A stretch of DNA of 64,000 nucleotides from positions 15,810,001-15,874,000 of the forward strand of contig NC_086108.1 of assembly GCF_963921235.1 (NCBI RefSeq). The letters are read 5' to 3'. Numbering within the stretch: the first letter of the stretch is position 1; each line of letters opens with the position of its first letter. Made by a program: the position numbers and the translations under genes. Below are positions 3,120 to 59,045 of this stretch, piece by piece. Below the pieces are notes generated by a model. That model was not told the DNA's origin and searched no databases. It worked only from the letters and a program-made list of their open reading frames with translations. This stretch comes from Mobula hypostoma (taxonomy: Eukaryota).

Positions 3120-4053
3120 AACATACATCAAAGTTGCTGGTGAACGCAGCAGGCCAAGCAGCATCTATAGGAAGAGGTGCAGTCGACGTTTCAGGCCGAG
3201 ACCCTTCGTCAGGACTAACTGAAGGAAGAGTGAGTAAGGAATTTGAAAGTTGGAGGGGGAGGGGGAGATCCAAAATGATAGGAGAAGACAGGAGGGGAGG
3301 GGGATAGAGCCGAGAGCTGGACAGGTGATAGGCAAAAGGGGATACGAGAGGATCATGGGACAGGAGGTCCGGGAAGAAAGACGGGGGGGGTGACCCAGAG
3401 GATGGGCAAGAGGTATATTCAGAGGGACAGAGGGAGAAAAAGGAGAGTGAGAGAAAGAATGTGTGCATAAAAATGAGTAACAGATGGGGTACGAGGGGGA
3501 GGTGGGGCCTTAGCGGAAGTTAGAGAAGTCGATGTTCATGTCATCAGGTTGGAGGCTACCCAGACGGAATATAAGGTGTTGTTCCTCCAACCTGAGTGTG
3601 GCTTCATCTCCACAGTAGAGGAGGCCGTGGACAGACATGTCAGAATGGGAATGGGATGTGGAATTAAAATGTGTGGCCACTGGGAGATCCTGCTTTCTCT
3701 GGCGGACAGAGCGTAGATGTTCAGCAAAGCGGTCTCCCAGTCTGCGTCGGGTCTCACCAATATATGGGAATGGGATGTGGAATTAAAATGTGTGGCCGTC
3801 AGAATGGGGATGGGATGTGGAATTAAAATGTGTGGCCATTCGTCCCCCCCATCCCTCCCCACTGATCTCCCTCCTGGCACTTATCCGTGTAAGCGGAACA
3901 AGTGCTACACATGCCCTTACACTTCCTCCCTTACCACCATTCAGGGCCCCAAACAGTCCTTCCAGGTGAGGCATCACTTCACCTGTGAGTCGACTGGGGT
4001 GATGTACTGCGTCCGGTGCTCCCAATGTGGCCTTTTATATATTGGTTGTATTG
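3120..4053 (-). mobile_element. Penelope-like retroelement fragment with internal inversion, 14-bp TSD
   Basis: TSD cttctcatacaagt at 3106-3119 and 4054-4067. GIY-YIG region with CxxxxCxxC...C on + (PGTYPCKRNKCYTC...FTCESTGVMYCVRCSQCGLLYIG, ~3840-4045). The C-terminal GIY-YIG part and pLTR lie on - (3120-3780). Confidence 0.9.
3180..3217 (-). ncRNA. Minimal type I hammerhead ribozyme (Penelope pLTR)
   Basis: Minus strand reads UAGUC CUGACGA AGG-GUCUCGG-CCU GAAAC GUC GACUG: complete core, stem I AGUC/GACU, 3-bp stem II, palindromic ACGU stem III. Confidence 0.85.
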
Positions 4054-4659
4054 CTTCTCATACAAGTGGTCAGTTCCAAGAGTGTGGTAACAGCAAGATA
4101 GAAGCTAACCTTGAACCTGATGGTACATGCTCTCAGACTTTTGTTGCTTTTGGCTGATGGGGTGGGGGGGGAGAAGAGAGAATGTCCACAATAGGTGGGG
4201 TCTTTGCTTATGATGGCTGCTTTACTGAAGCAGAAAGAAGTGTAGACAGGGTCCATAAAGGGAGCCTGGTTCCCATGATGTACCAAACTGTGTCCACAAC
4301 CCTCTCCAGTTTCAGCTTAGTAGTTTCTTACAGACACATTAGAACCAGTTTTAATATCACTGGCATATGCCATGAAATTTGTTGTTTTTTGACAGCAGTA
4401 TATTGCAATACATCATTTTTAAAACTATAAATTACAATAACAAATATATATATAAATTTTAAGTAAGTGACACGCACAAAATACTGGAGGAACTCAGAAG
4501 GCCAGGCAGTATCTATGGAAAAGAGTAAACAGTCGACGTTTGGGGCCAATGTATCTGCATATTTTCTCGTGTTCGTAAAATTAAGTAAGTAGTGCAAAAG
4601 AGAGAAAATAATAATGAGGTAGTATTCATGGGTTCATTGTCCACTCAGAAATCTGATGG

Positions 4660-5080
4660 CGCAGCATGCAGAGAAGATTTACCAGGATGCTGCCTGGACT
4701 AGAGGGCATGTCTTAGGAAGATAGGTTCAGTGAGGATGCGGGGGGGGGGGTGTAACTTAATAGAGGTGTTTAAGATAAAAAGCATAAATTGAGTGGATAA
4801 ACAGAGACTTTTCCCAGGATAGAAATGGCTAATACAAGGAGACAAAATTATGAACTGATTGGAGGTAACTATAGGGGAGATGTCACAGAAAGTGGTGGGT
4901 GTATGAAATGACCTGCTAGGTGTGATGGTTGAAGCAGATACAGTAGGGGCATTTAAAGAACTGTTAGATAGGTAGATGGGTGATAGAAAAATGTAGGGCT
5001 ATGTAGGTGGGAAGGTTTAGATTGATCTTAGAGTTAAGTTAAAAGGTTGGCACAACATCATGTGCTGTTATGTTCTATGA
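4660..5080 (+). mobile_element. CR1 3' fragment, degraded
   Basis: cagagaagatttaccaggatgctgcctgga (QRRFTRMLPG) followed by a CR1-type 3' UTR. Confidence 0.7.
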
Positions 5081-6109
5081 AATAAGAAAAAAACTGCAGC
5101 CTGTACGGATCTTGCAAAGTTTCAGGTATGATCTTCTCTGGTGTTTGGAAAGGAAGAGAAAAAAGGAACATATGCATTCATATAGTGCCTTTCATGGTCT
5201 TAGAATATCCCAAAGGAACTGAATGTTATTAAAAGTCTGCTCTCTGACTTCTCAGACTGGAGAACAGTAATCTATTATGTCTACACTGATGGAGACACAA
5301 CAGACTGCAGATGCTGGAATCCTCAGCAATACACAAGATGCTGGAGGCACTCAGCAGGTCACTTTGTGGAGGGAAATATGCAGTCAATGTTTCAAGATGA
5401 AGGTCTCTGTCCAAATCCTCCCAAAGATGCTGTCTGACCAGCTGAATTCCTCTGTATTTTCCATGTGTGTCCACTTATCTCTAACATTTTGCTGCAGCAC
5501 CCTGTATGGTCATAGTCCACATCCCTGATGATACAACCTCTGTCTCTGCTTCCTTCTGTCTTTTCACTGCCCTGTCTTAATTGTTTCTGTTTGTAATTTT
5601 CTGCCTGTGAGGTGTCAGTGGGGATGTTGCAATTATACAGTGAGGTCTTGAATCCCTTTCTTTCTCCACTTGGTAGTCTCATCAGATGACAGAGCTGGGA
5701 ATAGAATTTCACACCAGCTCATGGGACAATGGGTAGGATTTTCTGCACACAGGTACCAGACAGTTTGGGATTTCAGAGCAGGTGTTCACTATGGTAGATG
5801 TGCCAACATTTCTGATGGCTGTTGACAGTATTTCTGACAGGGGATGGACAGGTAAACAGGTATGGGTGTTGTCAATAGCCTCTGTGTGCTCCTATCAGAA
5901 ACATTTCAAGGTTGCCAGTGCTTTCCCAGGTAAAACTTCTCCACTGCGATGAGTAAAAGCATTTCACTCAGTGTTTTGGATGCTGCACTCACTGCTGTCT
6001 TGCTTTTTTCATATGTTAGTGTTGCGTTGTATTCGTTGGGCTTAAAGTGCACCTTGTTAAAGAATAACCTTGTTTAGTCTCAGTATTTCAAAAATTCCTG
6101 CTCATGTTA

Positions 6110-6520
6110 TAGCCCAACTGACCTATATTGATTGTGTTGTCGACCAAACTGGTCCCATTTCTCCCTCATTTTCGTTCACAGCCTTCTAAACTTCTATACA
6201 CATACTTATCAGATGGCTTTGAAATGTTAATGTAGCTGCCTCAACCATTTTTGGCAGCTCATTCCAAGTACATACATCCTTTGTGTGAAGAAGCTGCTCA
6301 TGATATCTATTTTAAATCTCTTGCCTGTGATCTTAAACATACACCCTGGGAAAAGGCTCTGCTTTCACTGTGTCTGCCCATCATGATGGTAATATGTACC
6401 TCTATCATATAAAGTCCTAGTCTACGCAATCACTCCTTGTAACAAAGGCTCCCAAGTCCAGGCAACATCTTGTTAAGTTTTATCTGCACTCTTCCTAGTT
6501 TAATAGCATATTTCCTGTAC
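6110..6520 (-). mobile_element. CR1 3' fragment, degraded
   Basis: Reverse-complement similarity to the other CR1 3' ends in the window (ggcagctcattcca..., ccaggcaacatcttgt). Confidence 0.55.
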
Positions 6521-8044
6521 TGCGGTCGGTCTCCAGCAGATTTCTTTGAACTCATCTTGGCTCACTTCCTCACTTTCTCAAGCTCTCCAAACCACTTTCA
6601 GATGCTCCAAAAGAAACCTCCCTCTTGGCCATCATTTAGTCATCATTCCAGATATCTTCACATCCAGTGATACATTAAGTTTTGTTTAATAAAGCTCCAG
6701 TGAAGCTACTTATAAATTATTACAACTTTTAAAGCACAATAAAGATGCTAGGCTGAAACACACTTTCAGTGTCAATGATTATTGGTGTCAGATGTTTTGT
6801 TACATTGCCTTGCTCTGTTAAAGTGGCCAAGTTGCTTCATTGCCTTTGATTGCTTGAGTCCTGAGTCTTGAGTATCCTTCTGTTTAGTTGTCTTTGTCTT
6901 ATGTTGCCTTCTGTGCTTATTTGCTCAGGTTTCTTTTTTTGCTTCTTTCAGCTGCTGTTGCCAATAAAATACATTTAGGTGCCACGCCTCATGTGTTTTT
7001 AGCTGTGTTTAGGCTTCTTGTTTCTTGCTGTGTATAGATGCACGTCTTGTGATTTTGTCGATACGCATCTTGTATTTCTGCTGTGTTACCTGACCAAGTA
7101 TTGCTGTGTTTAGATGGCCAATACTGGTGTTTCCTGCTGTGTCCAGCTGCCTCCATCATGTGTTTCTTGCTGTATGTAGATGTCTGTTTTATGTTCCTTG
7201 CTGTGTTTTAATCTGTGTCACATGCTTACCACTGTGGGTTCTATATATCATAAAATCATGGAATCATACAACACAAATGCAGGTCCTTCAGACAACCATG
7301 TCCATGCTAACTGACAAATGCCTATTGGTACACGTTTCATGTGCCCTGTTGTGTCCCATGTGCCAGAATCTCATGTTTCTTCCTGTGTTTAGATACCTGT
7401 GTCTTGCATTTCCTCCAATGCTTAGGCACCCAAGTCTCTTGTGTTTCTTCCTGTGTTTTTTGGGTGTCCGAGTCGCATGTTTCCTCCTTTGTTTAGATGA
7501 TCGAGTTATGTATTTCTTCTTGTATTATGGTGCCTGAGGTATTTTTGTTTTAATGTGTGAGTCCTGTGTTCCTACTTGTGTTTAGCTGCCCAAGTCTCAT
7601 TAGGTGGCTACATCTTGAGTTCTTTTGCTGTGTTTTGGAGCCCAGGCCTGTCATTTTCTGCTTCGTTTGCAAGTCCACAATCAAAAATATTGGCATTGTA
7701 ATAAAAACAAGATGCTGGAAATGCTGAGCAGAACCAAGCACTATTTGTAGAGAACAGTTAACATTTCATGTCAGAAAGAAAACTTTTTAGTATCAGAGAA
7801 AGTGTGGCAGGGGTGGGTAGAATGGAGGAAATGTCTCTGATACAGTGAGACCAAATTATTCAGTGGCAGTTATCAGCATATTATGCTCCTTTGTAGTGTT
7901 GTTTGCAGGGTTGTGTGATGTGTCCTGCGACCCAGCCTTTGCCAGTAGGAAACAAACAACTGAACCAAAATGATGGCAGGCAAACTTGTCCATTCTGCTA
8001 CAGAAGGGTGAGTTAGCTGAAGCTGGAGAATTCAATATCAGTTG

Positions 8045-8345
8045 TTTATTTATTTTTATTTTTATTTAGAGATACAGTGGGGATTAGGACAATTGGGCCT
8101 TTCAAGTCACACTGCTCCACAACCCCCAACAACCCCAATTTAACCCTAAGTAATCATGGGACAATTTACAATGACCAATTAACGTACTCGATATGTCTTT
8201 GGACTGTGGGAGGAAATTGGATCACCTGGAGAAAACCCATGGGGAGAACGTACAGAGATTATTACAGAGGATGCTGGCATTGAATTCCGAACTCTGATCC
8301 CCTGAGCTGTAATAGCATTGCGCTAACTGTTCTGCTACCATGCAG
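8045..8345 (-). mobile_element. tRNA-derived V-SINE-like element (HE1-type)
   Basis: (TTTA)n tail at ~8045; V-domain-like core tctttggactgtgggaggaa...; antisense to the copies at 8925 and 30820. Confidence 0.65.
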
Positions 8346-10010
8346 GTTATTTTATTTTTCTGAAGTACTGGGATGATAGTAGTTTTCTGAAAGCTGGTGG
8401 GAACCACAATTTGAAGTGTGGAGAGGTTAAGAATGTTTACAAATACCCCCACCAGCTGATCTGCACAGAATCTAAGGCACAGCAAGGACACCATCTGGGT
8501 CAGGTTCGTACTGTGGGTTCACTCTCTGGAAGACAGATTTCCATCTGCAAAGGTGATTCTGTGTTCAGGTACATTAGAGACTATTGGAGTGGATGATATA
8601 CCCATTCCCCTTCTGCCCAAAACGTGGATAGAATGTGTTAAACTCATCAGGAAGGGTTGTGCTGCTGTTGTTGATGCTGCCCGACTTTGTTTTGTAGCCC
8701 ATTATAGCATGTAAGCCCTGCCACAACTGATGACCAGTCTGTGACTCAATTTCAGACTGGTATTGTCTTTTGGTGTCTGATAGATTTACAGAGGTTGTAT
8801 CTCAATTATTTTTTGTAAAGCTTAGGTCAGTGGGGAGTGGATCTCGAGTTCACCCAAAGTTTCCAGTTTGGGAGCACCCAGATTGTCCTCTTTGGTACAC
8901 CGTTCACAACATTGTAATGTGCTATGGGCACGTAGTGGTTATTGCTCGGGGGCATCAGAGTTTGGAGTTCAATTTGAAGTTTGTACATCTGTCCCATGAG
9001 CACATGGGTTTTCTCCAGGTGCTCTGGTTTCCTCCCACAGTCCAAAGATATACCCAATAGGTGCTTAATTGTTCATTGTAAGTTTCCTGTGATTAGTCTA
9101 GGATTAAATATGTGGTTGCTGGGAGGTGTGGCTTGTTGAGCCAGAAGGACCTGTTCTACACTTTATCTCTAAATAAATAAACAAACAAACAAACAGACAC
9201 TTCTTTGATAAATTTCACACTGTTAATGATATATTCATCGAGGCTGGCAACTGAGTCTTTGAGCATAGACTCAAAGCTGTGTCACAAAAGCTCCTCTACA
9301 GCTCTGCACTACTTTCTGTATCGGATCCTCCCATTTCAGCTTCTATATGTATGCAGAAAATAGGAGTACAGCCTGGTGATCTGATTTACAAAAGTGTGGT
9401 CAGGGTGGGGGAGTCGGGGTGGCGAGTGGCTTGGTCACCATCTTTAATGGTTCTACAGCAATAATCGTCAGAACCATTGTTGTGTCACTGTTTGGGCCCC
9501 TGGTGCGACAGGAAATGTGCTGGTTGTAATTTGGTGACACACTCATTTGGCCTGTTGGCATCACTGATAATCATGAAGAGGGCAACTGGATACCCCATTT
9601 CAAAGCTGTTGACCACAGAGGATAGTGCAATGAGTGCAGGCTTCATATCCATCTGAGATGGGATCCACCAGGCCAACTGACTGTTTAATTCATGCTGATG
9701 CAACTGTATTTCTATGTTATATTGACTATCCTGTTGGACATAATATTTATTATAAATTACTGTGATTGCACGTTACACATTTAGACGGAGAAGTAACGTA
9801 AAGATTTTTACTCCTCATGTATACAAAGGATGTAAGAAATAAAGTCAATTCAATTCAATTCAATATAGACTACCAACCAGTGAAGTCTCGGGACAGGTAG
9901 TCTAGGAAACACTTCACCATGAGATATTCCAAACTGAGTGAGCAGGAGCTCAGCAGAACCATCACGTCTGAGCACCATGAGGAGTTGGTTAAGAAACAAC
10001 CTGTCCTCAC
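8345..10010 (-). mobile_element. Rex1/Babar-like LINE ORF2 remnants interrupted by a SINE and a Rex1 3' end
   Basis: Minus-strand peptide LRFCADQLVGVFVNILNLS...VPTSFQKTTIIPV..KNKITC is typical of the Rex1 pre-RT region. A + strand Rex1-like tail (CAATT)n lies at ~9700-9862. Confidence 0.6.
8925..9195 (+). mobile_element. tRNA-derived V-SINE-like element
   Basis: gggttttctccaggtgctctggtttcctcccacagtccaaaga core and a ctctaaataaataaacaaac tail. Confidence 0.7.
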
Positions 10011-49440: not shown

Positions 49441-51001
49441 ACGATCTCCAAATTCCTAAACCATACCTCAAAATCTAAACCTCAAAAACAATCTTCACGG
49501 GAGTGATGTTTTTCCATTGGCACAGCTGCACACAGTGTCCCAGACAGAGCCTTATTCAAGTACAAGCGTATAAAATAACCCAATTCCTTACAGCATCGGG
49601 GTCAAATGTGTTGCGGTATGAGGAAAGGTTGCGTACCCTGGATTGATTTCCCTAAAATGGAACATTAAGAGGCAATCTAATTACCATCTTGGACTGCTTC
49701 ATTGACTGTGGAGGTACTCAGAACAAAGGGATTTTTCTATTCACAACTCCTTAGCAAATAAAGCAGTCCATACTCACATGTAGCAAAAGCGTTCAGGTAT
49801 AGGCTGATAAGTAGATGTCCCAAGTAATAACCATCTGCATGAAAAGAAAGTCCAACCACCCTGAAGTTCAATGGCATTATCATTGCTGAGACCTTCTCTA
49901 TTAATATCCTGGAAACCGCCATTGACCAGAAATTCAACTGGACCAGCCATGTACAGTGCCTATAAAAAGTATTCACTCCCCGCCCCCCCAGAAGTTTTCA
50001 TGTTTTATTGTTTTACAACATTGAATCACAGTGGACTTAATTTGACTTTTTTGACACAGATCAACAAACAGAAAAGATTCTTCAGTGTCAAAGTGAAAAC
50101 AAATTTCTACAAATTGGTCTAAATTTATTTCAATTATGAAACACAAAATAATTGATGCATAATTACTCACCCCCTTCAAGTCAGTATTTAGTAGATGCAC
50201 TTTTGGTAGCAAATGCAGCCTTGAATCTATGTGGATAGGTCTCTATCAGCTTTGCACATTTGGACACTGCAATTTTTCACCATTCTTCTTTACAAAACTG
50301 CTCAAGCTCTATCAGATTGCATGGGGATCATGAGTGATGAGCCCTTTTTAAGTCCAGCCACAAATTCTCAATAGGATTGAGGTCTGGACTGCGACTTGGC
50401 CACTCCAGCACATTAACTTTGTTGTTTTTAAGTCATTTCTGTGTAGCTCTGGCTTTATGCTTGGGGCCATCGTCTTGCTGAAAAACAAATCTTCCCCCAT
50501 GCCACAATTCTGTTGCAGACTGCATCAGGTTTTCCTTCAGGATTTCCCTATATTTTGCTGCATTCATGTTACCCTCTTCTTTCACAAGTCTTCCAGGGCC
50601 TGCTGCAGTGAAGCATCCCCACAGTATGATGCAGCTACCACCATGCTTCACGGTAGGGATGATGTGTTTTTGATGACATGCAGTGTTTGGTTTATGCCAA
50701 ACATTGCATTTAGTCTAATGGCCAAAAAGCTCATCAGACCATAAAACAGTCTTCCAGATGACTTCAGAGTCTCCCATATGCCTTTTGGTAAACTCTAGCC
50801 GAGATTGCATGTGAGATTTTTTCAACAGTGGCTATTTCTTTGCCACTCTCCCATAAAGCTGTGAGAGATAAAGCACTCAGGCAACAGTTGTTTAAATGTA
50901 TAGTCTCTCCCATCTCAGACACTGAAACTTGCAACTCCTTTGGAGTTGTCATAGATCCCTTGGTGGCTCCATCGCTAGTCCCCTTCTTGCATGGTCACTC
51001 A

Positions 51002-52003
51002 GGCTACGTCCGCATTAGACAAGGTAATTTTGAAAATGCCGGTTTCGCATAAACATGACAGGCATCCACGCTAGGTGTTTTTAAAAATACCTCTGTCCAC
51101 ATTAAAACGGATATTTGGGCGAATCTCCTCCTATTGGGCATGCACAGGACATACAGAAAACAAGCGAAGAGGAAACAGTATACTTGGTGCGCGTTTGTCC
51201 AGTTACAGACTTGAAAAACTTAAAAGGAAATTGCCAAACAAAAGACTTGGTGCGCGTTTGTTCAGTTACAGACTAGAAAAACTTAAAAGGAAATTGCCAA
51301 ACAAAAGACTTGGTGTGCGTTTGTTCAGTTACGGACTGGAAAAGCTTAAAAGGAAATTGCCAAACGAAAGACTTGGTGCGCGTTTGTCCAGAAACATTTC
51401 CTACAGCCATAGTCTCTTCACCGATGAAAGGGACGACAGCTACAACTAAATGCAATAAGGCTTGTTACTGGGCAAAAGTGAAATTTGCTGTTGCCTCATT
51501 TGTTTGCCTTTACTTTTGCCATGTCTTTGTGTATTATTTTGCTGTATTTAACATGTGCAATAAAATTAGTTACTGAGCAAAAGTGACAATTGCACCTATT
51601 GAATGTTTGCACAAGCAATACATTAATAAAGCACCTTGTTAAATGTATAAAACGTGTCTGCATCAGTGTTATCTTGTATTTCCATACAATGTTACATTAG
51701 GCTGTTACACATCTATTGTCGGATATTGTTGTGGTGTTGGAGGTTGCGTTGCAGAAAACAATGAAATGCCGTGCTGCCGCCACCATTTGTTCCAGCACGT
51801 CATGACAGCGGTTTAAAGATAGCTGGTTACCCCGCACACACTATGCCAGATGTTAGACGTTTTCAGATTTATTCACTCTGGGGAGCGTTTCTGAAAATCT
51901 CCATTTTCGGGGGAGGAAAACACTGTTTCAGTGTGGACGGAGGACCAAAACGAAGAGAAAAAGATTCAGTTATGGATTTATCCGGTCTAGTGTGGACATA
52001 GCT
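51002..52003. mobile_element. Non-autonomous PIF/Harbinger-like DNA transposon inserted in Tc1
   Basis: Imperfect 19-bp TIR ggctacgtccgcattagac / gtctagtgtggacatagct; 3-bp TSD tca (50999-51001 and 52004-52006); no transposase. Confidence 0.8.
51182..51391. repeat. 63-bp minisatellite, 3.3 copies
   Basis: Unit acttggtgcgcgtttg...ttgccaaacaaaag starts at 51182, 51245, 51308 and 51371. Confidence 0.95.
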
Positions 52004-54583
52004 TCAGTTTTTGAGGACAGCCTGCTCTAGGCAGAATTGCAGCTGTGCCATATTGCTTCCATTTCTTGATGATAACTGTGCTCCAAAGGATATTCAGTGA
52101 CTTGGAAATTTTCTTGTATCTATCTCCTGACTTGTGCTTTTCAATAACCTTTTTGTGAAGATTCTTGCCATATATTTTTGTTTTCATGATGTAGTTTTTG
52201 CCAGGATACTGACTCACCAGCAGTTAGACCTTCCAGATACAGGTGTATTTTTAATACAATCAATTGAAACACCATGAATGCACACAGGTGATCTCCATTT
52301 AACTAATTATGTGACTTCTAAAACCAATTGGCTGCACCAGTGATGATTTGGTGTGTCATAATAAGGGGGGTGAATACTTGTGCAATCAATGATTTTGTGT
52401 TTTATATTTGTAATTAGTTTTGATCACTTTGTAGAGATTAGATTTCACTTTGACACAGAAGAGTCTTTTTCTGTTGATCGATGTCAAAAAAGCCAAATTA
52501 AATCCACTGTGGTTCATTGTTTTAAAACAATAAAACATGAAGACTTTCAGGGGGGTGAATAGTTTTTATAGGCGCTGTAAATACTAGTTGGTCCTGAGGA
52601 AAACCACTCCAAAACCTTACTGTATGGAATGTGTCAAGAGTTGATGAAGTAATCTTGTGTGTTTCCAACCTCAAGTTTAAATGATAACACCTCCTGCTAT
52701 CAGCAGCAGCCCAAGCTGTCTGCATTAACCTCAGCAACAGTTTGCTAAGGCTTCTGTAAGAGTACCTGTCAAACCCATGACCACCACTACCAAGGCAGAT
52801 GGCCAGAGGGGGTAAAACAGATGATGGAATGGATGAAGTCAATGGAAAGTTAAACACGTTTATAAATAGATAGGGTGAATGTGCAGTGTTTTTCTCAAGG
52901 AGTTAAGAACAAGAGGGCATAAGCTTAAAGTGAAAGGGAAGAAATTTATTAGGAACCTGAAGGATGACTTTTTCACCCAGAGAGTGGTCTGTATATGGAA
53001 TGAACTGCCAGAGGAAGTGGTTGTGGTAAGCACATAAACAAGATTTAAAAGGAAATTTCACAGGTAATGGATAGGAAAGGTTGAGGGGTATGTAGGTCAA
53101 TCACAGGCAATTGAGACTAGCTTAGATGGGAATCTAGGTTGACATAGACTATTTGGACCAAAGAGTCTATTTCATACTGTCTGACTATATGACTGTATAG
53201 CCTACAGGACGATGACAGATTGTAGTGGTGCTAGAAAGTTTGTGAGCCCTGTAGAATTTCCTCTCTTTCTGCATAAATGTGACCTAAAATGTGATCAGAT
53301 CTTCACATAAGTCCTAAAACTAGATAAAGAGAACAAAATTAAATAAATAACCCAAAAAAATTATACTTCATTTATTTATTGAGAAAAATGATCCACTATT
53401 ACATGGCTATGTTGGAAAAAGTATGTGAACCTCTAGGGTAATGCCTGCTACAAAAGTCAGGTGTTCGAATCAGTGAGATAAGAATGGAGGTGTGGGTTGT
53501 CGAGGTGCCCTGCCGTATAAAATGACACCTAAAGTCAGATTGCTCTTCTCAAGTAAGATCCGTTTATGTGCAGTATGCCTCAATCAAAACAACTTTCAGA
53601 GAATCATAGAAGAAGAATTGTAGAGATGCATGAAGCTGGAAGAGGCTACAAAAGCACTACTAAAGACCTCAGTAAGAGAAATTGTCTCCAAATGGAGGGA
53701 ACTCAGTACTTTGCTACTCTCCCGAGGAGTGGGCGTCCTGCAAAGATCACACCAATAGTACAACATGCAATGCTGAAGGAGGTGAAAAAGAACCTGGTGT
53801 AACAGCAAAAGACCTGCAGAAATCTCTAGAACTTGCTAAAGTCTCTGTTCATGTGTCCACTATAAGAAAACATTGAACAGATTGGTGTTCATGGAAGGAC
53901 ACCACAGAGGAAACCACTGTTCTCCAAAAGAAAACATTGCTGCATGTCTCAAGTTTGCAAAAGACTGCCTGAATGTTCTGCAATGCTTCTGGGAAATGTT
54001 CTCTGGACAGATGGGACCAAAATTGAATTTTTTGACAGAAATACACATTGCTGAGGCATTAGGAGGAAAAAGGGCACTGCACACCAATACCAAAACTTCA
54101 TCCCAACTGTGAATCATGGTGGAAGGAGCATCATGGTTTGGGGCTGTTTTGCTGCCTCAGGGCCTGGACAGCTTGCAATCGTTGAAGGAACAATGAAAAT
54201 AAAGTTGTATCAAGACATAGAACAGGAGAATGTCAGGGTAGCAGTCTGTCACCTAAAGCTTAATAGAAGTTGGATAATGCAACAAGACAATGATCCAAAA
54301 GACGAGTAAATCAATGACAGAATAGTTTAAAAAGAAGAAAATTGTGTTTTGGAATGACCAAATCAAAGTCCTGACCTTAATCTTATAGAAGCAAGCAGTC
54401 CATGCAACGAAACTCACCAGCATCCTAAAGTTGAAGCAGGAATGGCCTAAAATTCCTCCAAGCCGATATGCAGGACTGATCAACAGTTACTGGAAATGTT
54501 TGGTTGAAGTTATTGGTGTACAAGGGTGTTACACTAGTTACTGAAAGTAAAGGTTCACGTCCAACAAATACATGTAATATTGA

Positions 54584-54796
54584 CACGAGGAATTCTGCAG
54601 ATGTTGAAAATTCAAGCAACACACATCAAAGTTGCTGGTGAACGCATCTCCCCCTCCCCCTCCCACTTTTAAATCTCTTACTAGCTCTTTCTTCAGTTAG
54701 TCCTGACGAAGGGTCTCGGCCTGAAACGTCGACTGTACCTCTTTCTAGAGATGCTACCTGGCCTGCTGCGTTCATCAGCAACTTTGATGTGTGTTT
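54584..54796 (+). mobile_element. Short Penelope pLTR insertion with inverted ends, 13-bp TSD, inside Tc1
   Basis: TSD catgtaatattga at 54571-54583 and 54797-54809; inverted 29-mers at 54618-54646 and 54767-54795; same family as 3120-4053. Confidence 0.9.
54698..54735 (+). ncRNA. Minimal type I hammerhead ribozyme, sense to RABGAP1L pre-mRNA
   Basis: tagtc ctgacga agg-gtctcgg-cct gaaac gtc gactg; predicted cleavage after 54730. Confidence 0.85.
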
Positions 54797-55058
54797 CATG
54801 TAATATTGAATCACTTTTGTCAATAAATAAATGAACAAGTATAATGTTTTGTGTGTTATTTGTTTAATTGGGTTCACTATATCTGGTGTTAGGACTTGTG
54901 TGACGATCTGATCACACTTTAGGTCATATTTATGCAGAAGTGGGGACAATTCTACAGGGTTCATAGACTTTCCAGCACCTGTATCTTTAACGCCAAAGTC
55001 AACCTCAGCTAAAGACTTGCTCAAGTGTTCTCAGGACTTCTATGCACAGTGGAATTTT

Positions 55059-55155
55059 TTTTTCTCTCTCTGTTTTCCTCCCTCCCTCCCTCTCTCCCCT
55101 CCCCAGAGCCAGACCGAGCGAAGGCTCCGGGCTCCCGGCGCCCCGCTGCCGAACT
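55059..55155 (-). other. 97-nt GC-rich retroposed RNA fragment with 14-bp TSD
   Basis: TSD cacagtggaatttt at 55045-55058 and 55156-55169; short A tail on -; target site TTTT/AA. Confidence 0.8.
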
Positions 55156-55915
55156 CACAGTGGAATTTTAAATGTTTTCTCAAACAAGGATTATAGACAT
55201 TGTTTTACATCACCTTTTGTGTCCAGTGACCTCACTAAAGTGCTGGCTGAATTTCATATTACAAACTTCAGTCCTGACCCAAAAATGGTTCTCCAAACCT
55301 TTGATGTAGAAGGAGAACAGCAACTGGCATAGAGAATGCCGTAAACTGCAGGTTTCTGTCCAAGTCCAGACTTGTAACTAACTCTCTGGTAGTTTACCAT
55401 TACCATGTCTAAACCCTGGAACTCCCTTCCAACAGCTCTGTGAAGGACTGCAGTGGTTCAAAAAGGCGGTTCATCTCCAGCTTCTCATGGACAATTAAGC
55501 TGGGCAATAAATCCTGGCACATCCTGTAAATTAAAAGAAAATTCCCAGGTAATTTAGTGATGACATAAGGATGGCAGCAAAGATGGAAAATCCAAAACTT
55601 GCTGCCCCACAGTGGTGTTGTTGGTTGCAAATTCTAAAGTGAATTGTTTGACAAAGAGTGGGATATGGAGCCAAGATAATTTATAAAGCTAATGAAATAC
55701 TCAGACAGCTTCATCTAAATGTGCCTTGAATAAACCAGCCCTTACCCTCACTCTTTATTGACAATTCACAAAGCTGTATATTACCCCAGGGCTTAATGAC
55801 AGGGACTATCAATGATGCCTTTAATAAAAAGAACTTAGCCCTATTGTATTTCAGAAGTGGAGACTGTGATTTTTGTATTTTTCCACTAACTGTCTCTTTC
55901 CTACAATCTTTCCAG

Positions 55916-56008
55916 GTGCCAACAAAAAAACTGAAGAAGTATGAGAAGGAATACCAAACAATGAGGGAGCAGCAGCAACAGCAGGAAGATCCGATCGACA
56001 GATACAAG
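55916..56008 (+). CDS. RABGAP1L: RABGAP1L internal exon (31 aa, start of the coiled-coil region)
   Basis: VPTKKLKKYEKEYQTMREQQQQQEDPIDRYK. Branch point ctaac 55886-55890, pyrimidine tract, CAG acceptor ending at 55915, donor GTAGGG at 56009, phase 0-0. Confidence 0.95.
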
Positions 56009-56099
56009 GTAGGGAAACATGCAAAATCCGCCTTGTCATTGACAATGTTGGGAGTGCACTGAGTGTTTAGAATCTCACAGAAAAACTGGGTAAAGAAAC

Positions 56100-57375
56100 A
56101 GATCAATGTCTGAAGTCTGCAGTACAGGCTATATTGTCAGAGGCTTCAGTGGAAGCAAACTAATGAGGTAGTCTTGAGGGGTTGTAAAGTCTGGAGAGTT
56201 TTTGTAAAGCAATACATTGAGGAACTACCCAGGAATAGACTAGTTTACATCAGGTGGTGGTAATGAGAATGATTAATGAATGATCGGTAATAGCATGTTC
56301 AACATTAAGCTATAGAATGATTGAGAAATCTTCACCCTGCTCATGAAATACCACAATTCTGACCTGAGATGCAGACCATAATTATAAGCTTCAAGGTGGG
56401 TTTGGAGAGGAATTAGGATAATCTGGAAATAAAACTCTGAAACTGGGGAAGGCCAATTTCAAGGTCATATGACAGGCCTGGCAGAAGTAGATTGGGAGAG
56501 GAGTGCCTACATGTGCCAAGTGAGAATCGTTCAAAAGTAAAGAAAGAGAATTTAAGTACAACATTTCCCCATATGGGTGAAAAATACAGGAAGCAAGTCC
56601 AAGGAACCCTGGATGTCACAGGTTTGATAAAGATAAAAAGCGCATGTCTGGTATGAAGAACTGAAAACAGAAGCACATTGGAAGGCATAAGGCAGAATTG
56701 GAAAATGAAATATCACTTGCAGACAAGCTCAAAGAAAATCCCAAAGCATTTCATGAGTATATTAATAGCACTATGAAAATCTGTGTGTGAAGGCTCGTGA
56801 ATTTGGGAGGTTCTAAATGAATATTCGTATGTCACCTCTATTCGATAAGGACAGACACATTATGGTCAGAGAATTAAAGAAAAGAGGTAGTGAAATTCCA
56901 GAGCATGTTATCATTACAAAGGAGAAATTAGATGTCTTCATGGGTTTAAAGTTCAATAAATACCCAGGTACTATTAGGATGTATCCTGGACTACAAGGCA
57001 AGGGAAAAAGTTGTTGGGGCACTTAAATCTTAACTGGCCAAAACAAATGTAGCTCTTTTATGCAGGGAAGAAGCCAGGTAATTGCAGGCTTGTTAGTACA
57101 GTGTCAGTGTAGGAAATTTATTTGAAAAAAATCTACACTTATAAAGGCAGGGATTAATCAAATAAAGACAGCATGTTTTTGTTGGGGAGAGATAGTGTCT
57201 GACTAGTTAGATTGACTTTATCAAAGAGGTAATAAAAAAAATACGTTGGCAGCATGGTTGATGTAGTCAACATGAGTCCAGTTAGGCCTTTGACAAGGTT
57301 GCACCTGGGACTAGTCCAAAAGGTTAGAGCCCATGATATCCAAAGCAAGTGGCAGATTAGAGCCCATGATATCCA
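56100..57375 (+). mobile_element. Old degraded CR1 ORF2
   Basis: Residual motifs aaagaaaatcccaaagcatt and aggcctttgacaaggtt; resumes at ~59050-59320 (SKLADD). Confidence 0.65.
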
Positions 57376-57384
57376 AAGAAGTGG

Positions 57385-59045
57385 CGGATAGTGGAGAGCA
57401 CACCTGTGGCTGTCCCCCTCAGCAACAAATATCTTGTTCTGGATGCTGTTGAGGGGGATGACCTGACAGGGGACAACCACGGTGACCGGGTCTCTGGCAC
57501 TGAGCCTGGCGATGTTGTGCAGGAGAGAAGGAGGGAGAAGAGGAATGCGGTAGTCATAGAGGATTACATAGTCAGGGGAACGGACAGGAGATTCTGTGAG
57601 CCTGATAGAGATACCCACATGGTGTGTTGCCTACATCAAAGTTGCTGGTGAACGCAGCAGGCCAAGCAGCATCTATAGGAAGAGGCGCAGTCGACGTTTC
57701 AGGCCGAGACCCTTCGTCAGTTGCCTCCCAGGTGCCAGGGTACGGGATGTCTCGGATCGAGTCCTGAATATTCTGAAGGAGGAGGGTGAGCAGCCAGTTG
57801 TCTTGGTACATGTTGATACCAATGACATAGATAGGACAAAGGAGGAGGTCCTGAAGAGAGATTTCCAGGTGTTAGGAAGGAAGCTGAGAAGCAGGACCTC
57901 CAGGGTAGTAATCTCGGGATTACTACCTGTGCCACGTGCTAGCGAGGGCAAGAATAGTAGGATCAGGCAGATGAATGCGTGGCTGAGAGACTGGTGCAGG
58001 GGCCAGGGCTTCAGATTCTTGGATAATTGGGATCTCTTCTGGGGGAGGTATGACCTGTTCAAAAAGGACAGGTTACACCTGAACCTGAAAGGAAACAATA
58101 TCATGGCGGGAAGGTTTAATAAAGCTGTTAGGGAGGGTTTAAACTAATTTGGCAGGGGGATGGGAACCGGAATGACAGGGCTTAGGAAGGGGAAAACAGA
58201 AATAAATCTAAGATAGTGAGCAGTAAAGACGTCAGGAAAGACAGGCAGGTGGTGGGGCAAATTTGGGATGAGTTGCAGTGCAATCAAAGCGAAAAGTACC
58301 AAATACTGGTCTTAAGGTGTTATACTTAAATGCACGCAAGGAATAAGGTGGATGATCTTGTCGTACAGCTACAAATTGGCAGGTATGATATTGTGGCCAT
58401 CACTGAGATGTGGCTAAAGGATGAGTCGGTGGTGAAGAAGGCGAATGCAATGTTGGCATTCATTTCTAGAGGAATAGAGTATAGGAGCAGGGATGTGATT
58501 TAGAGGTTCTATAAGACACTGGTGAGACCTCACTTGGAGTACTGTGGGCAGTTTTGGTCGCCTTATTTAAGAAAGGATGTGCTGACGTTGGAGAGGGTAC
58601 AGAGAAGGTTCACTAGAATGATTCTGGGAATGAGAGGGTTAACATATGAGGAACGTTTGTCCACTCTTGGACTGTATTCCTTGGAGTTTAGAAGAATGAG
58701 GGGAGACCTCATAGAAACATTTCAAATGTTGAAAGGCATGGACAGAGTGGATGTGGCAAAGTTGTTTGAAGGGCACCCATTCAGAACAGAAATGCGAGAA
58801 ATTTTTTTAGTCAGAGGGTGGTGAATCTATGGAATTTGTTGCCACGGGCAGCAGTGGAGGCCAAGTCATTGGGTGTATTTAAGGCAGAGATTGATAGGTA
58901 TCTGAGTAGCCAGGGCATTAAAGGTCTTGGTGAGAAGGCGGGGGAGTGGGACTAAATGGGAGAATGGATCAGCTCATGATAAAATGGCGGAGCAGACTCG
59001 ATGGGCTGAATGGCCGACTTCTGCTCTTTTGTCTTATGGTCTTAT
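57385..59045 (+). mobile_element. CR1 with ORF1 (SGNH esterase), APE start, large internal deletion and 3' end
   Basis: VPLSNKYLVL, AVVIEDYIVR, CLPGARVRDV, VHVDTNDI, DRLHLN (57391-58147); LKVLYLNAR at ~58310; jump at ~58422 to KKANAMLAF...RPHLEYC. Confidence 0.92.
57633..57719 (-). mobile_element. 87-bp Penelope 3'-end insertion in CR1 ORF1, 7-bp TSD
   Basis: TSD gttgcct at 57626-57632 and 57720-57726; almost identical to 3125-3211. Removing it restores MVCCLPGARV. Confidence 0.92.

Follow-up and report, generated by a model that had tools for sequence, protein, structure and literature searches.

Two separately inserted Penelope-like ends around a RABGAP1L exon of Mobula hypostoma, a bracketing pair likely due to chance

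An intron of RABGAP1L in Mobula hypostoma carries a minimal hammerhead motif on the strand of the pre-mRNA, and an inverted copy of the same sequence lies beyond the next exon. Such an arrangement raises the question of whether the two copies could act on the splicing of the exon between them. A reading made from the sequence alone had proposed a ribozyme/anti-ribozyme switch, and had named neutral transposon debris as the alternative. The window analysed here is 64,000 nucleotides long (assembly GCF_963921235.1, contig NC_086108.1, positions 15,810,001 to 15,874,000), and all positions refer to it (Table 1). The observations below make it very likely that the two arms, copy A upstream and copy B downstream, are 5'-truncated Penelope ends that were inserted separately, came to bracket the exon by chance and have no regulatory role.

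Table 1. Features of the RABGAP1L exon, of the two insertions around it and of a related copy
Feature	Position	Strand	Remarks
Third family copy, same intron	3120..3830	-	intact motif; GIY-YIG frame end (3513-3764)
Tc1-like DNA transposon, decayed, host of copy A	53227..54979	+	inverted pairs, Pfam
Insertion A, left target-site duplication	54571..54583	+	13 bp
Inverted 5' piece of insertion A	54584..54646	-	pLTR 3' end and one-sided tail
Copy A, 3' end (pseudo-LTR, pLTR) of Penelope-like element	54647..54796	+	150 nt, RABGAP1L sense
Minimal type I hammerhead motif	54698..54735	+	sequence and descriptor scan; predicted cut after 54730
Insertion A, right target-site duplication	54797..54809	+
RABGAP1L coding exon	55916..56008	+	93 nt, phase 0-0, AG/GT-bounded
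ORF1 region (SGNH/GDSL esterase-like) of decayed LINE, host of copy B	57385..58147	+	Pfam
Insertion B, left target-site duplication	57626..57632	+	7 bp
Copy B, pLTR end	57633..57719	-	87 nt, RABGAP1L antisense
Insertion B, right target-site duplication	57720..57726	+

The exon between the arms matches residues 276-306 of PDB entry 3hzj_A (RABGAP1L) with E 4.6e-11. With 93 nt and phase 0-0 the exon is frame-preserving, as had been claimed earlier. The RABGAP1L exons were located by short motifs and were then verified against splice sites and the loose ends of RNA contigs. The neighbouring exons lie at window positions -1398..-1270 upstream and 83860 downstream, and the flanking introns measure 57 kb upstream and 15 kb or 28 kb downstream. 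The inverted copy was also confirmed: positions 54703-54790 and the reverse complement of 57633-57720 are identical in 81 of 88 positions (7 differ) without a gap, and a repeat search returned the same pair at 92% identity with a spacing of 2842 nt.

Both arms are pseudo-LTR ends of one Penelope-like family, an origin that the earlier reading had recognised. In the third copy in the same intron, the end of a GIY-YIG frame directly precedes the pLTR. Copy A is 90.7% identical over 150 nt to positions 3120-3269 of that copy, whose frame end shares 81 of 84 amino acids with the frame of sequence L064. The L064 frame matches Pfam GIY-YIG with E 1.5e-4 and 22.5 bits, against a cut-off of 22.6; the frames of L017 and of the window by themselves gave no Pfam GIY-YIG match. 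A frame in sequence L012 matches RVT_1 with E 0.0031, below the cut-off, and has no match among solved structures; its C-terminal end overlaps the region that runs up to the GIY-YIG frame in L017 and in L064. The order in the family is reverse transcriptase, then C-terminal GIY-YIG, then pLTR, and copies A and B consist of the pLTR only. A literature search for Penelope/Neptune GIY-YIG elements in shark returned no paper.

The two ends have different target-site duplications, belong to different subfamilies and sit in different hosts. Each would have been made separately where it now lies, through an endonuclease cut and reverse transcription, as the two different duplications suggest. Copy A would have entered an old Tc1 transposon along with the inverted 5' piece that is usual in this family. 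The terminal inverted repeats (TIRs) of this host lie at approximately 53227-53405 and 54797-54979 and contain inverted pairs of 133 nt (83%) and 65 nt (75%), and its broken frames match Pfam HTH_SB (E 3.7e-07, below the curated cut-off) and HTH_Tnp_Tc3_2 (E 0.022). In copy A, 5' truncation goes with a tail on one side only and with the inverted 5' piece, and the frame formed by the tail recurs behind another copy in sequence L066. The available text of Craig et al. 2021 (PMC8557442) describes the same inverted 5' piece and one-sided tails of 30-40 bp in 5'-truncated insertions of endonuclease-positive Penelope-like elements, whereas copies A and B represent two events, 2.8 kb apart, with a host exon between them.

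Copy B would have entered an old LINE, which we take to be of the CR1/L2 type. The ORF1 region of this LINE matches Pfam Lipase_GDSL_2 (E 4.4e-12); repeat contigs begin at 57385, and the element extends past 58147. In copy B the truncation falls at the front of the hammerhead core, and the 5' strand of stem I is missing. Position 57720 is the first base of the right target-site duplication, so the insert ends at 57719; in other LINE copies 57625 is joined to 57720 and the insert is absent. Local duplication or gene conversion between the arms was rejected, as 18 of 40 other sampled copies are closer to copy A, and copy B is identical over 88 nt to 5 of the 40. A single insertion event yielding both arms was rejected on the two duplications and the two hosts. 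In DNA contigs, the unique intron contigs of organisms C and E end in the right Tc1 repeat (54950) and that of organism B ends in the LINE edge (57414), which suggests that both hosts are common to other organisms. Among the pieces listed for organisms A, B, C and E, none bridges a Penelope junction. Joints in the DNA contigs that pass over copy A or B are deep and have short sides; they are consistent with an origin in other copies of the host repeats.

The family is extremely abundant, and pairs of this kind arise at about the rate expected by chance. An exact match to the 31-nt core occurs 46,104 times in the genome (23,029 forward and 23,075 reverse; a control gave 0), and copy A has 43 scored genome matches at 93-100%. 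Spaced stretches of the genome, 200 kb together, hold nine family copies, which extrapolates to about 156,000 in total (95% range 72,000-297,000). A sample of 1.52 Mb of intron from 17 genes holds 74 copies, 41 sense and 33 antisense (p 0.42), with numerous back-to-back pairs. Face-to-face pairs within 3.1 kb number 3 in this sample besides the RABGAP1L pair, against 2.8 expected, and 2 among the first 100 exact cores listed, against 1.4 expected. Of 780 random pairs of copies, 80% are as alike as A and B or more. The A-B match is far beyond that of random sequence, yet it is not beyond chance for this genome. By estimate, about 150-400 exons should be bracketed by such pairs by chance, and as one of these the RABGAP1L locus itself carries little weight.

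A chance pair might nevertheless have a minor effect. It is conceivable, although unlikely, that a minority of transcripts have the arms paired and, as with inverted Alu pairs, show low-level skipping, back-splicing or A-to-I editing as an unselected by-product in which the ribozyme takes no part. The arms are the sole inverted repeat found across the exon in the 10 kb searched on each side, the exon is frame-preserving and the flanking introns are long. That the arms could pair, as had been claimed, is supported by a calculated duplex of -162.9 kcal/mol, with 84 of 88 nt paired on folding 54585-57760, a stretch that excludes the left Tc1 repeat. In a nested fold of 53200-57760, however, there are 0 A-B pairs, 163 TIR-TIR pairs and 29 pairs of copy A's own hairpin, the nested model being unable to represent the A-B and TIR helices together as a pseudoknot. 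The TIR duplex (-211.7 kcal/mol) encloses copy A, and 24 of the 88 nt of copy A overlap its own hairpin (54613-54646 with 54767-54800, 91%, -50.2 kcal/mol). In this model the A-B helix is ruled out by these nearer hairpins, of the inverted tail and of the Tc1 TIRs, which are predicted to form earlier. Despite lying 51 kb away, an antisense copy of 149 nt in the same intron gives a stronger duplex (-273.3 kcal/mol).

The closest precedent is exon 6 of TBXT, where, according to the available text of Xia et al. 2024 (PMC10901737), an inverted Alu pair (AluY/AluSx1) with 228 of 297 positions identical and 1,448 bp apart suffices for skipping. As in TBXT, the RABGAP1L exon has on both sides inverted arms that are computed to be capable of pairing; in both genes two members of one family inserted independently, and each lies more than 500 bp from the exon. 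The RABGAP1L arms, in contrast, are shorter (88 against about 297 nt) and farther apart (2.8 against 1.4 kb). Their distances from the splice sites are 1.1 and 1.6 kb. Competing helices surround the upstream arm, unlike in TBXT, and a skipped isoform is a feature of TBXT. Circular RNAs have been linked to young transposons, as by-products, in the accessible part of Gruhl et al. 2021 (PMC8516420). Single-exon circles, however, come from long exons with medians of 169-253 nt (PMC6376117), for which 93 nt is short, and the splice sites here look canonical.

None of the runs that contain 55000-56700 is recorded as RNA; the RNA evidence consists of contigs from four runs of one study, guessed as RNA and of uncertain library type. 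The exon is covered in all four and is joined onward to the next exon (contig X11, depth 122.9). A joint from 56008 to 55916 is absent from the 15 of 20 joints listed, which does not speak against such a joint, since rare forms are dropped from contigs. No letter changes are listed in the RNA contigs inside either arm. The LINE host has six A-to-G places, which are read as paralogue differences and not as editing because at least four of them (57475, 57560, 57760 and 57816) also occur in the DNA rows listed. Copy A is predicted to fold into its own hairpin first and to lie inside the Tc1 helix before copy B is transcribed, and the exon would thus be spliced normally in most transcripts; low-level skipping is possible.

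It is far less probable that copy A cuts the intron unless copy B masks it, the masking looping out the exon. Copy A does have a complete core and stem I, and the first 33 nt of its core region are perfectly complementary to copy B. Stem I (54698-54702/54731-54735) has four Watson-Crick pairs and one U.G, and is followed by CUGANGA (54703-54709), one extra A, stem II, GAAAC and GUC. The motif conforms to the descriptor of minimal hammerheads (min-HHRs) in its CUGANGA/GAAA boxes, NUH site, helix I of 4-5 bp, extra base after A9 and palindromic 15.2-16.2. In the available text of Cervera and De la Pena 2014 (PMC4209133), the min-HHRs in pLTRs of metazoan Penelope-like elements are likewise of type I with a short helix I, no helix III, an extra base before helix II and a palindromic 15.2-16.2; they are mostly solo copies from truncated elements, and opposite-strand pairs 100-700 bp apart are already known. 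The short helix I and absent helix III agree with the earlier description of a minimal, dimer-type hammerhead. The word "intact" was generous, as the anatomy is present but position 11.1 (54722) is U, and a G.U wobble replaces the G10.1-C11.1 pair that the same source calls highly conserved. Compared with the min-HHRs described there, helix II is also short (4 bp, two of them wobbles) and closed by G.U. The U is a family trait: G-C is kept in 2 of 25 otherwise intact copies, and C stands at 11.1 in 16 of the first 100 cores listed. Copy B has no helix I (0 pairs). Rfam found no hammerhead in the 64-kb window at its gathering score, nor among its four matches in 54560-54860 at E<=10, so the motif call is based on the descriptor and not on a family model.

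The lone copy A is predicted to be probably inactive, also as a monomer in vivo, because helix III is missing, the intron offers no sense partner and published single motifs are inactive. No sense copy other than A was found in this 57-kb intron; the nearest intact one is 142 kb upstream, and the stretch of RABGAP1L pre-mRNA examined holds four intact sense motifs. Since helix III needs a second copy on the same strand, and the intron has none, copy A is expected to stay uncut. The computed probability of a hammerhead-like fold is <0.001 for the 38-mer, that of the stem I pairs is about 0.005 in context, and the active dimer reaches -11.5 kcal/mol against -30.3 for the best cofold (nearest-neighbour terms only). 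Small hammerheads of Penelope-like elements (PLEs) reportedly cleave as dimers (Lunse et al. 2017). For a single Schistosoma min-HHR, the available text of PMC4209133 gives undetectable cleavage, and low cleavage for dimers. The four RNA-guessed runs leave 54955-55871 without cover and reach depth 3-15 in parts of the intron downstream; this gap is not read as a sign of cleavage. Copy B is made 2.8 kb after copy A and would therefore not guard against a fast cut.

Conserved intronic hammerheads do exist in amniotes, such as that of RECK (PMC6155905, in its available part), and like copy A these are sense-strand motifs of retroelement origin in vertebrate introns. They are, however, described as conserved from class to class and as similar to canonical retroelement hammerheads, whereas copy A is the end of a young repeat of high copy number and lacks helix III. 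Equally intact motifs extrapolate to about 57,000 genome-wide and show no depletion on the sense strand of introns, where 14 sense stand against 11 antisense (p 0.69) in the 1.52 Mb. Without the 35 copies in back-to-back pairs the counts are 24 sense and 15 antisense, the intact ones 7 and 6. This strand test covers few copies, with 0.35-0.76 as the range for the sense share of the intact ones, and mild selection would escape it. The 14 to 11 balance fits solo Penelope hammerheads that do not cut host pre-mRNA. With the ribozyme probably inactive, the pair at chance rate, intact sense motifs undepleted and nearer hairpins predicted to exclude the A-B helix, the evidence goes against the switch and favours neutral debris.

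Protein might assist such ribozymes. The Anolis PLE ribozyme is activated by PLE protein in vitro and cut only with protein, and RNA-seq ends are absent at its site (PMC11167929). It is just as improbable as the unaided switch that sense copies become able to cut with the help of a Penelope protein or of a second nascent copy, with copy B masking copy A and looping out the exon, and with hundreds of similar exons elsewhere in the genome. To our knowledge, a switch at this locus would be the first case of a transposon ribozyme that steers splicing under the control of its own antisense copy. Titles and abstract openings in the literature yielded no transposon ribozyme controlled in this way.

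The available text of PMC4209133 names no cartilaginous fish, and its supplement or that of bioRxiv 10.64898/2026.07.22.740005 may list the motif. That text gives 4,000-9,000 motifs for coelacanth and Xenopus, compared with at least 46,104 exact cores here. The upstream RABGAP1L exon is likewise bracketed by a Penelope-family pair, approximately 6 kb apart.

The locus consists of one solo minimal hammerhead, derived from a Penelope-like element (PLE), and a second truncated copy. The upstream copy A, sense to RABGAP1L, and the inverted downstream copy B are ends of one PLE. The claim of the sequence-only reading that the motif and its inverted copy bracket a RABGAP1L exon (55916-56008) is borne out. 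This exon matches human RABGAP1L chain 3hzj_A at residues 276-306 (E 4.6e-11) and RABGAP1 more weakly, and same-strand TBC-domain exons are present upstream of it. Its sequence gives a length of 93 nt and phase 0-0. The neighboring exons, located with short motifs, end at -1270 and begin at 83860, both outside the window, which makes the flanking introns 57 kb and 28 kb long. The inversion is equally clear: 54703-54790 matches 57633-57720, read as its reverse complement, at 81 of 88 positions without gaps, and the repeat search of the window contains them as inverted pair I2.

The element can be described in some detail. The GIY-YIG frame of a third copy (3120-3830) is 96% identical to that of a copy in another stretch of the genome (L064), where it matches Pfam GIY-YIG with a score just below the cut-off. 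In yet another family copy, a frame for reverse transcriptase matches RVT_1 weakly. The 5' junction of the third copy (3770-3840) is duplicated and rearranged, and beside it part of the copy's GIY-YIG region lies in inverted orientation. Copy A, inserted near the right-hand terminus of a decayed Tc1-like transposon, has an inverted 5' piece with a one-sided tail, and resembles in this the PLEs on record in PMC8557442. Copy B begins at the front edge of the hammerhead core and lacks stem I. A and B are separate insertion events of different subfamilies: in a set of 40 further ungapped copies of 88 nt, 18 are nearer to A than B is, 13 are equally near, and five are identical to B.

Family members in the window
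Feature	Position	Strand	Target-site duplication	Remarks
Third copy	3120-3830	-		same intron; same pseudo-LTR end running into GIY-YIG frame
Insertion A	54584-54796		13 bp, flanking
Insertion B	57633-57719		7 bp, flanking	within esterase-like LINE ORF1

Truncation at the ribozyme's front edge, of which B at 57719 is a case, recurs in the intron sample (1.52 Mb flanked by exon hits on one strand, taken from 17 genes, of which 13 are TBC-domain and 4 laminin-G): in 12 of 74 copies the end lies at most 5 nt ahead of the core, and in a further copy at core position 2.

The arrangement of A and B is very probably neutral debris, the alternative that the sequence-only reading had itself allowed and the best supported one. 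Exact copies of the 31-nt core number 46,104 in the genome, evenly on both strands (reversed control, 0). Twenty spaced 10-kb stretches contain nine family copies (at least 60 nt, at least 85% identity), which extrapolates to about 156,000 genome-wide (72,000-297,000). Face-to-face pairs within 3.1 kb number four in the intron sample, including A/B, against 2.8 expected, and two against 1.4 among the first 100 exact cores listed. A Poisson model places an intact sense motif and an antisense copy within 3.1 kb at 0.1-0.2% of exons, or 144-384 exons if the genome is assumed to have 150,000-200,000. Sixteen family copies, including four intact sense ones, fall in the examined part of RABGAP1L, and the next exon upstream likewise lies between two paired family members, separated by about 6 kb. 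Two observations count against chance: among five exons checked, 55916-56008 alone is bracketed by a high-identity pair within 3 kb, and apart from A/B no inverted repeat was found to bracket it within 10 kb.

Low-level skipping or editing caused by pairing of the arms is unlikely. The proposed duplex stands in part: A and B alone would form a helix of -162.9 kcal/mol, and in the computed fold of 54585-57760 the arms pair over 84 of 88 nt, but the fold of 53200-57760 has no A-B pairs, with 163 pairs in the Tc1 terminal inverted repeats and 29 in A's own hairpin. These competitors (-211.7 and -50.2 kcal/mol) are fully made before transcription reaches B. As the model allows no pseudoknots, an A-B helix may still form within the 1.4-kb Tc1 loop. 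By analogy, a minor splicing effect is possible, since imperfect 297-nt arms 1,448 bp apart suffice to skip an exon of TBXT (PMC10901737). The architecture would at most work like an inverted Alu pair, and 93 nt is short for a circle when compared with single-exon circles (PMC6376117). A second long inverted-repeat pair (50000-50156 and 52385-52538, 83-84%, about 2.3 kb apart) is probably another DNA transposon, and 51173-51396 is a tandem repeat of period 63 nt with units 88-93% identical.

The description of A's motif as an intact minimal hammerhead needs qualification. Stem I, both core boxes and the GUC site, ending at 54730, are present, but helix II is closed by G.U where the consensus is G10.1-C11.1, helix III is absent, and an Rfam search did not recognize the motif. 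U for C at 11.1 (54722 in A) is the majority state of the family, with 84 cases among the first 100 exact cores listed, and the G-C pair is missing in 23 of 25 intact copies of the intron sample; the main expansion therefore seems to have come from elements without the canonical pair.

Cervera and De la Pena could detect no cleavage by a single minimal hammerhead, and dimers and trimers cleaved at a low level (PMC4209133). The Anolis PLE ribozyme cleaves solely in the presence of the element's protein, is dispensable for insertion and has no RNA-seq read ends at its site (PMC11167929). No sense copy other than A was found in the intron, and the closest intact one lies in an intron further upstream, at a distance of 142 kb. 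In fold computations the hammerhead-like fold of A's 38-mer has a probability below 0.001 and its stem I pairs in context about 0.005; the best cofold is about 19 kcal/mol more stable than the active dimer, in nearest-neighbor terms that ignore the tertiary core. Copies in the intron sample are 41 sense and 33 antisense (p 0.42), and intact motifs 14 and 11 (p 0.69); leaving out 35 copies in back-to-back pairs, each pair probably a single insertion event, gives 24 to 15 and 7 to 6. The even ratio of intact motifs fits inactivity, with a wide interval of 0.35-0.76. We infer that A's ribozyme is inactive. Every test for a domesticated intronic ribozyme gave a failed or undecided result for A, and a ribozyme/anti-ribozyme switch is extremely improbable.

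The exon is covered in all four RNA-guessed runs at depth 63-408 (one study, contigs only). A mixed loose end in runs X9 and X17, one part of which was taken as the 83860 exon, decodes to a pattern with a single plus-strand match in 264 kb, at 71039 (L021:7039, past the window's end), preceded by a pyrimidine tract and AG, a strong acceptor. This is likely an alternative terminal exon of RABGAP1L, with five codons before a stop. Because 55916-56008 is spliced to 83860 in an X11 contig and 56008 apparently joined to 71039 in X9 and X17 RNA contigs, a long and a short isoform are both likely to include the exon. The latter would end just after the TBC region, where a short isoform of human RABGAP1L also ends.

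The exon contigs of three runs begin at 55915 and those of the fourth at 55914, a hint that the exon has several upstream splice partners. Immediately 3' of the exon, contigs of depth 3-15 occur within 56012-57414 in all four runs. They could reflect retention of the intron, an end inside it, or DNA; with read-through, 17 codons would follow before a stop. DNA contigs of three other organisms end at or before the host repeats of A/B. A GC-rich 111-nt insertion at 55045-55169, which organisms C and E lack in their orthologous contigs, has a 14-bp target-site duplication and a T-rich, pyrimidine start; its sense strand carries a pyrimidine tract ending in CAG.
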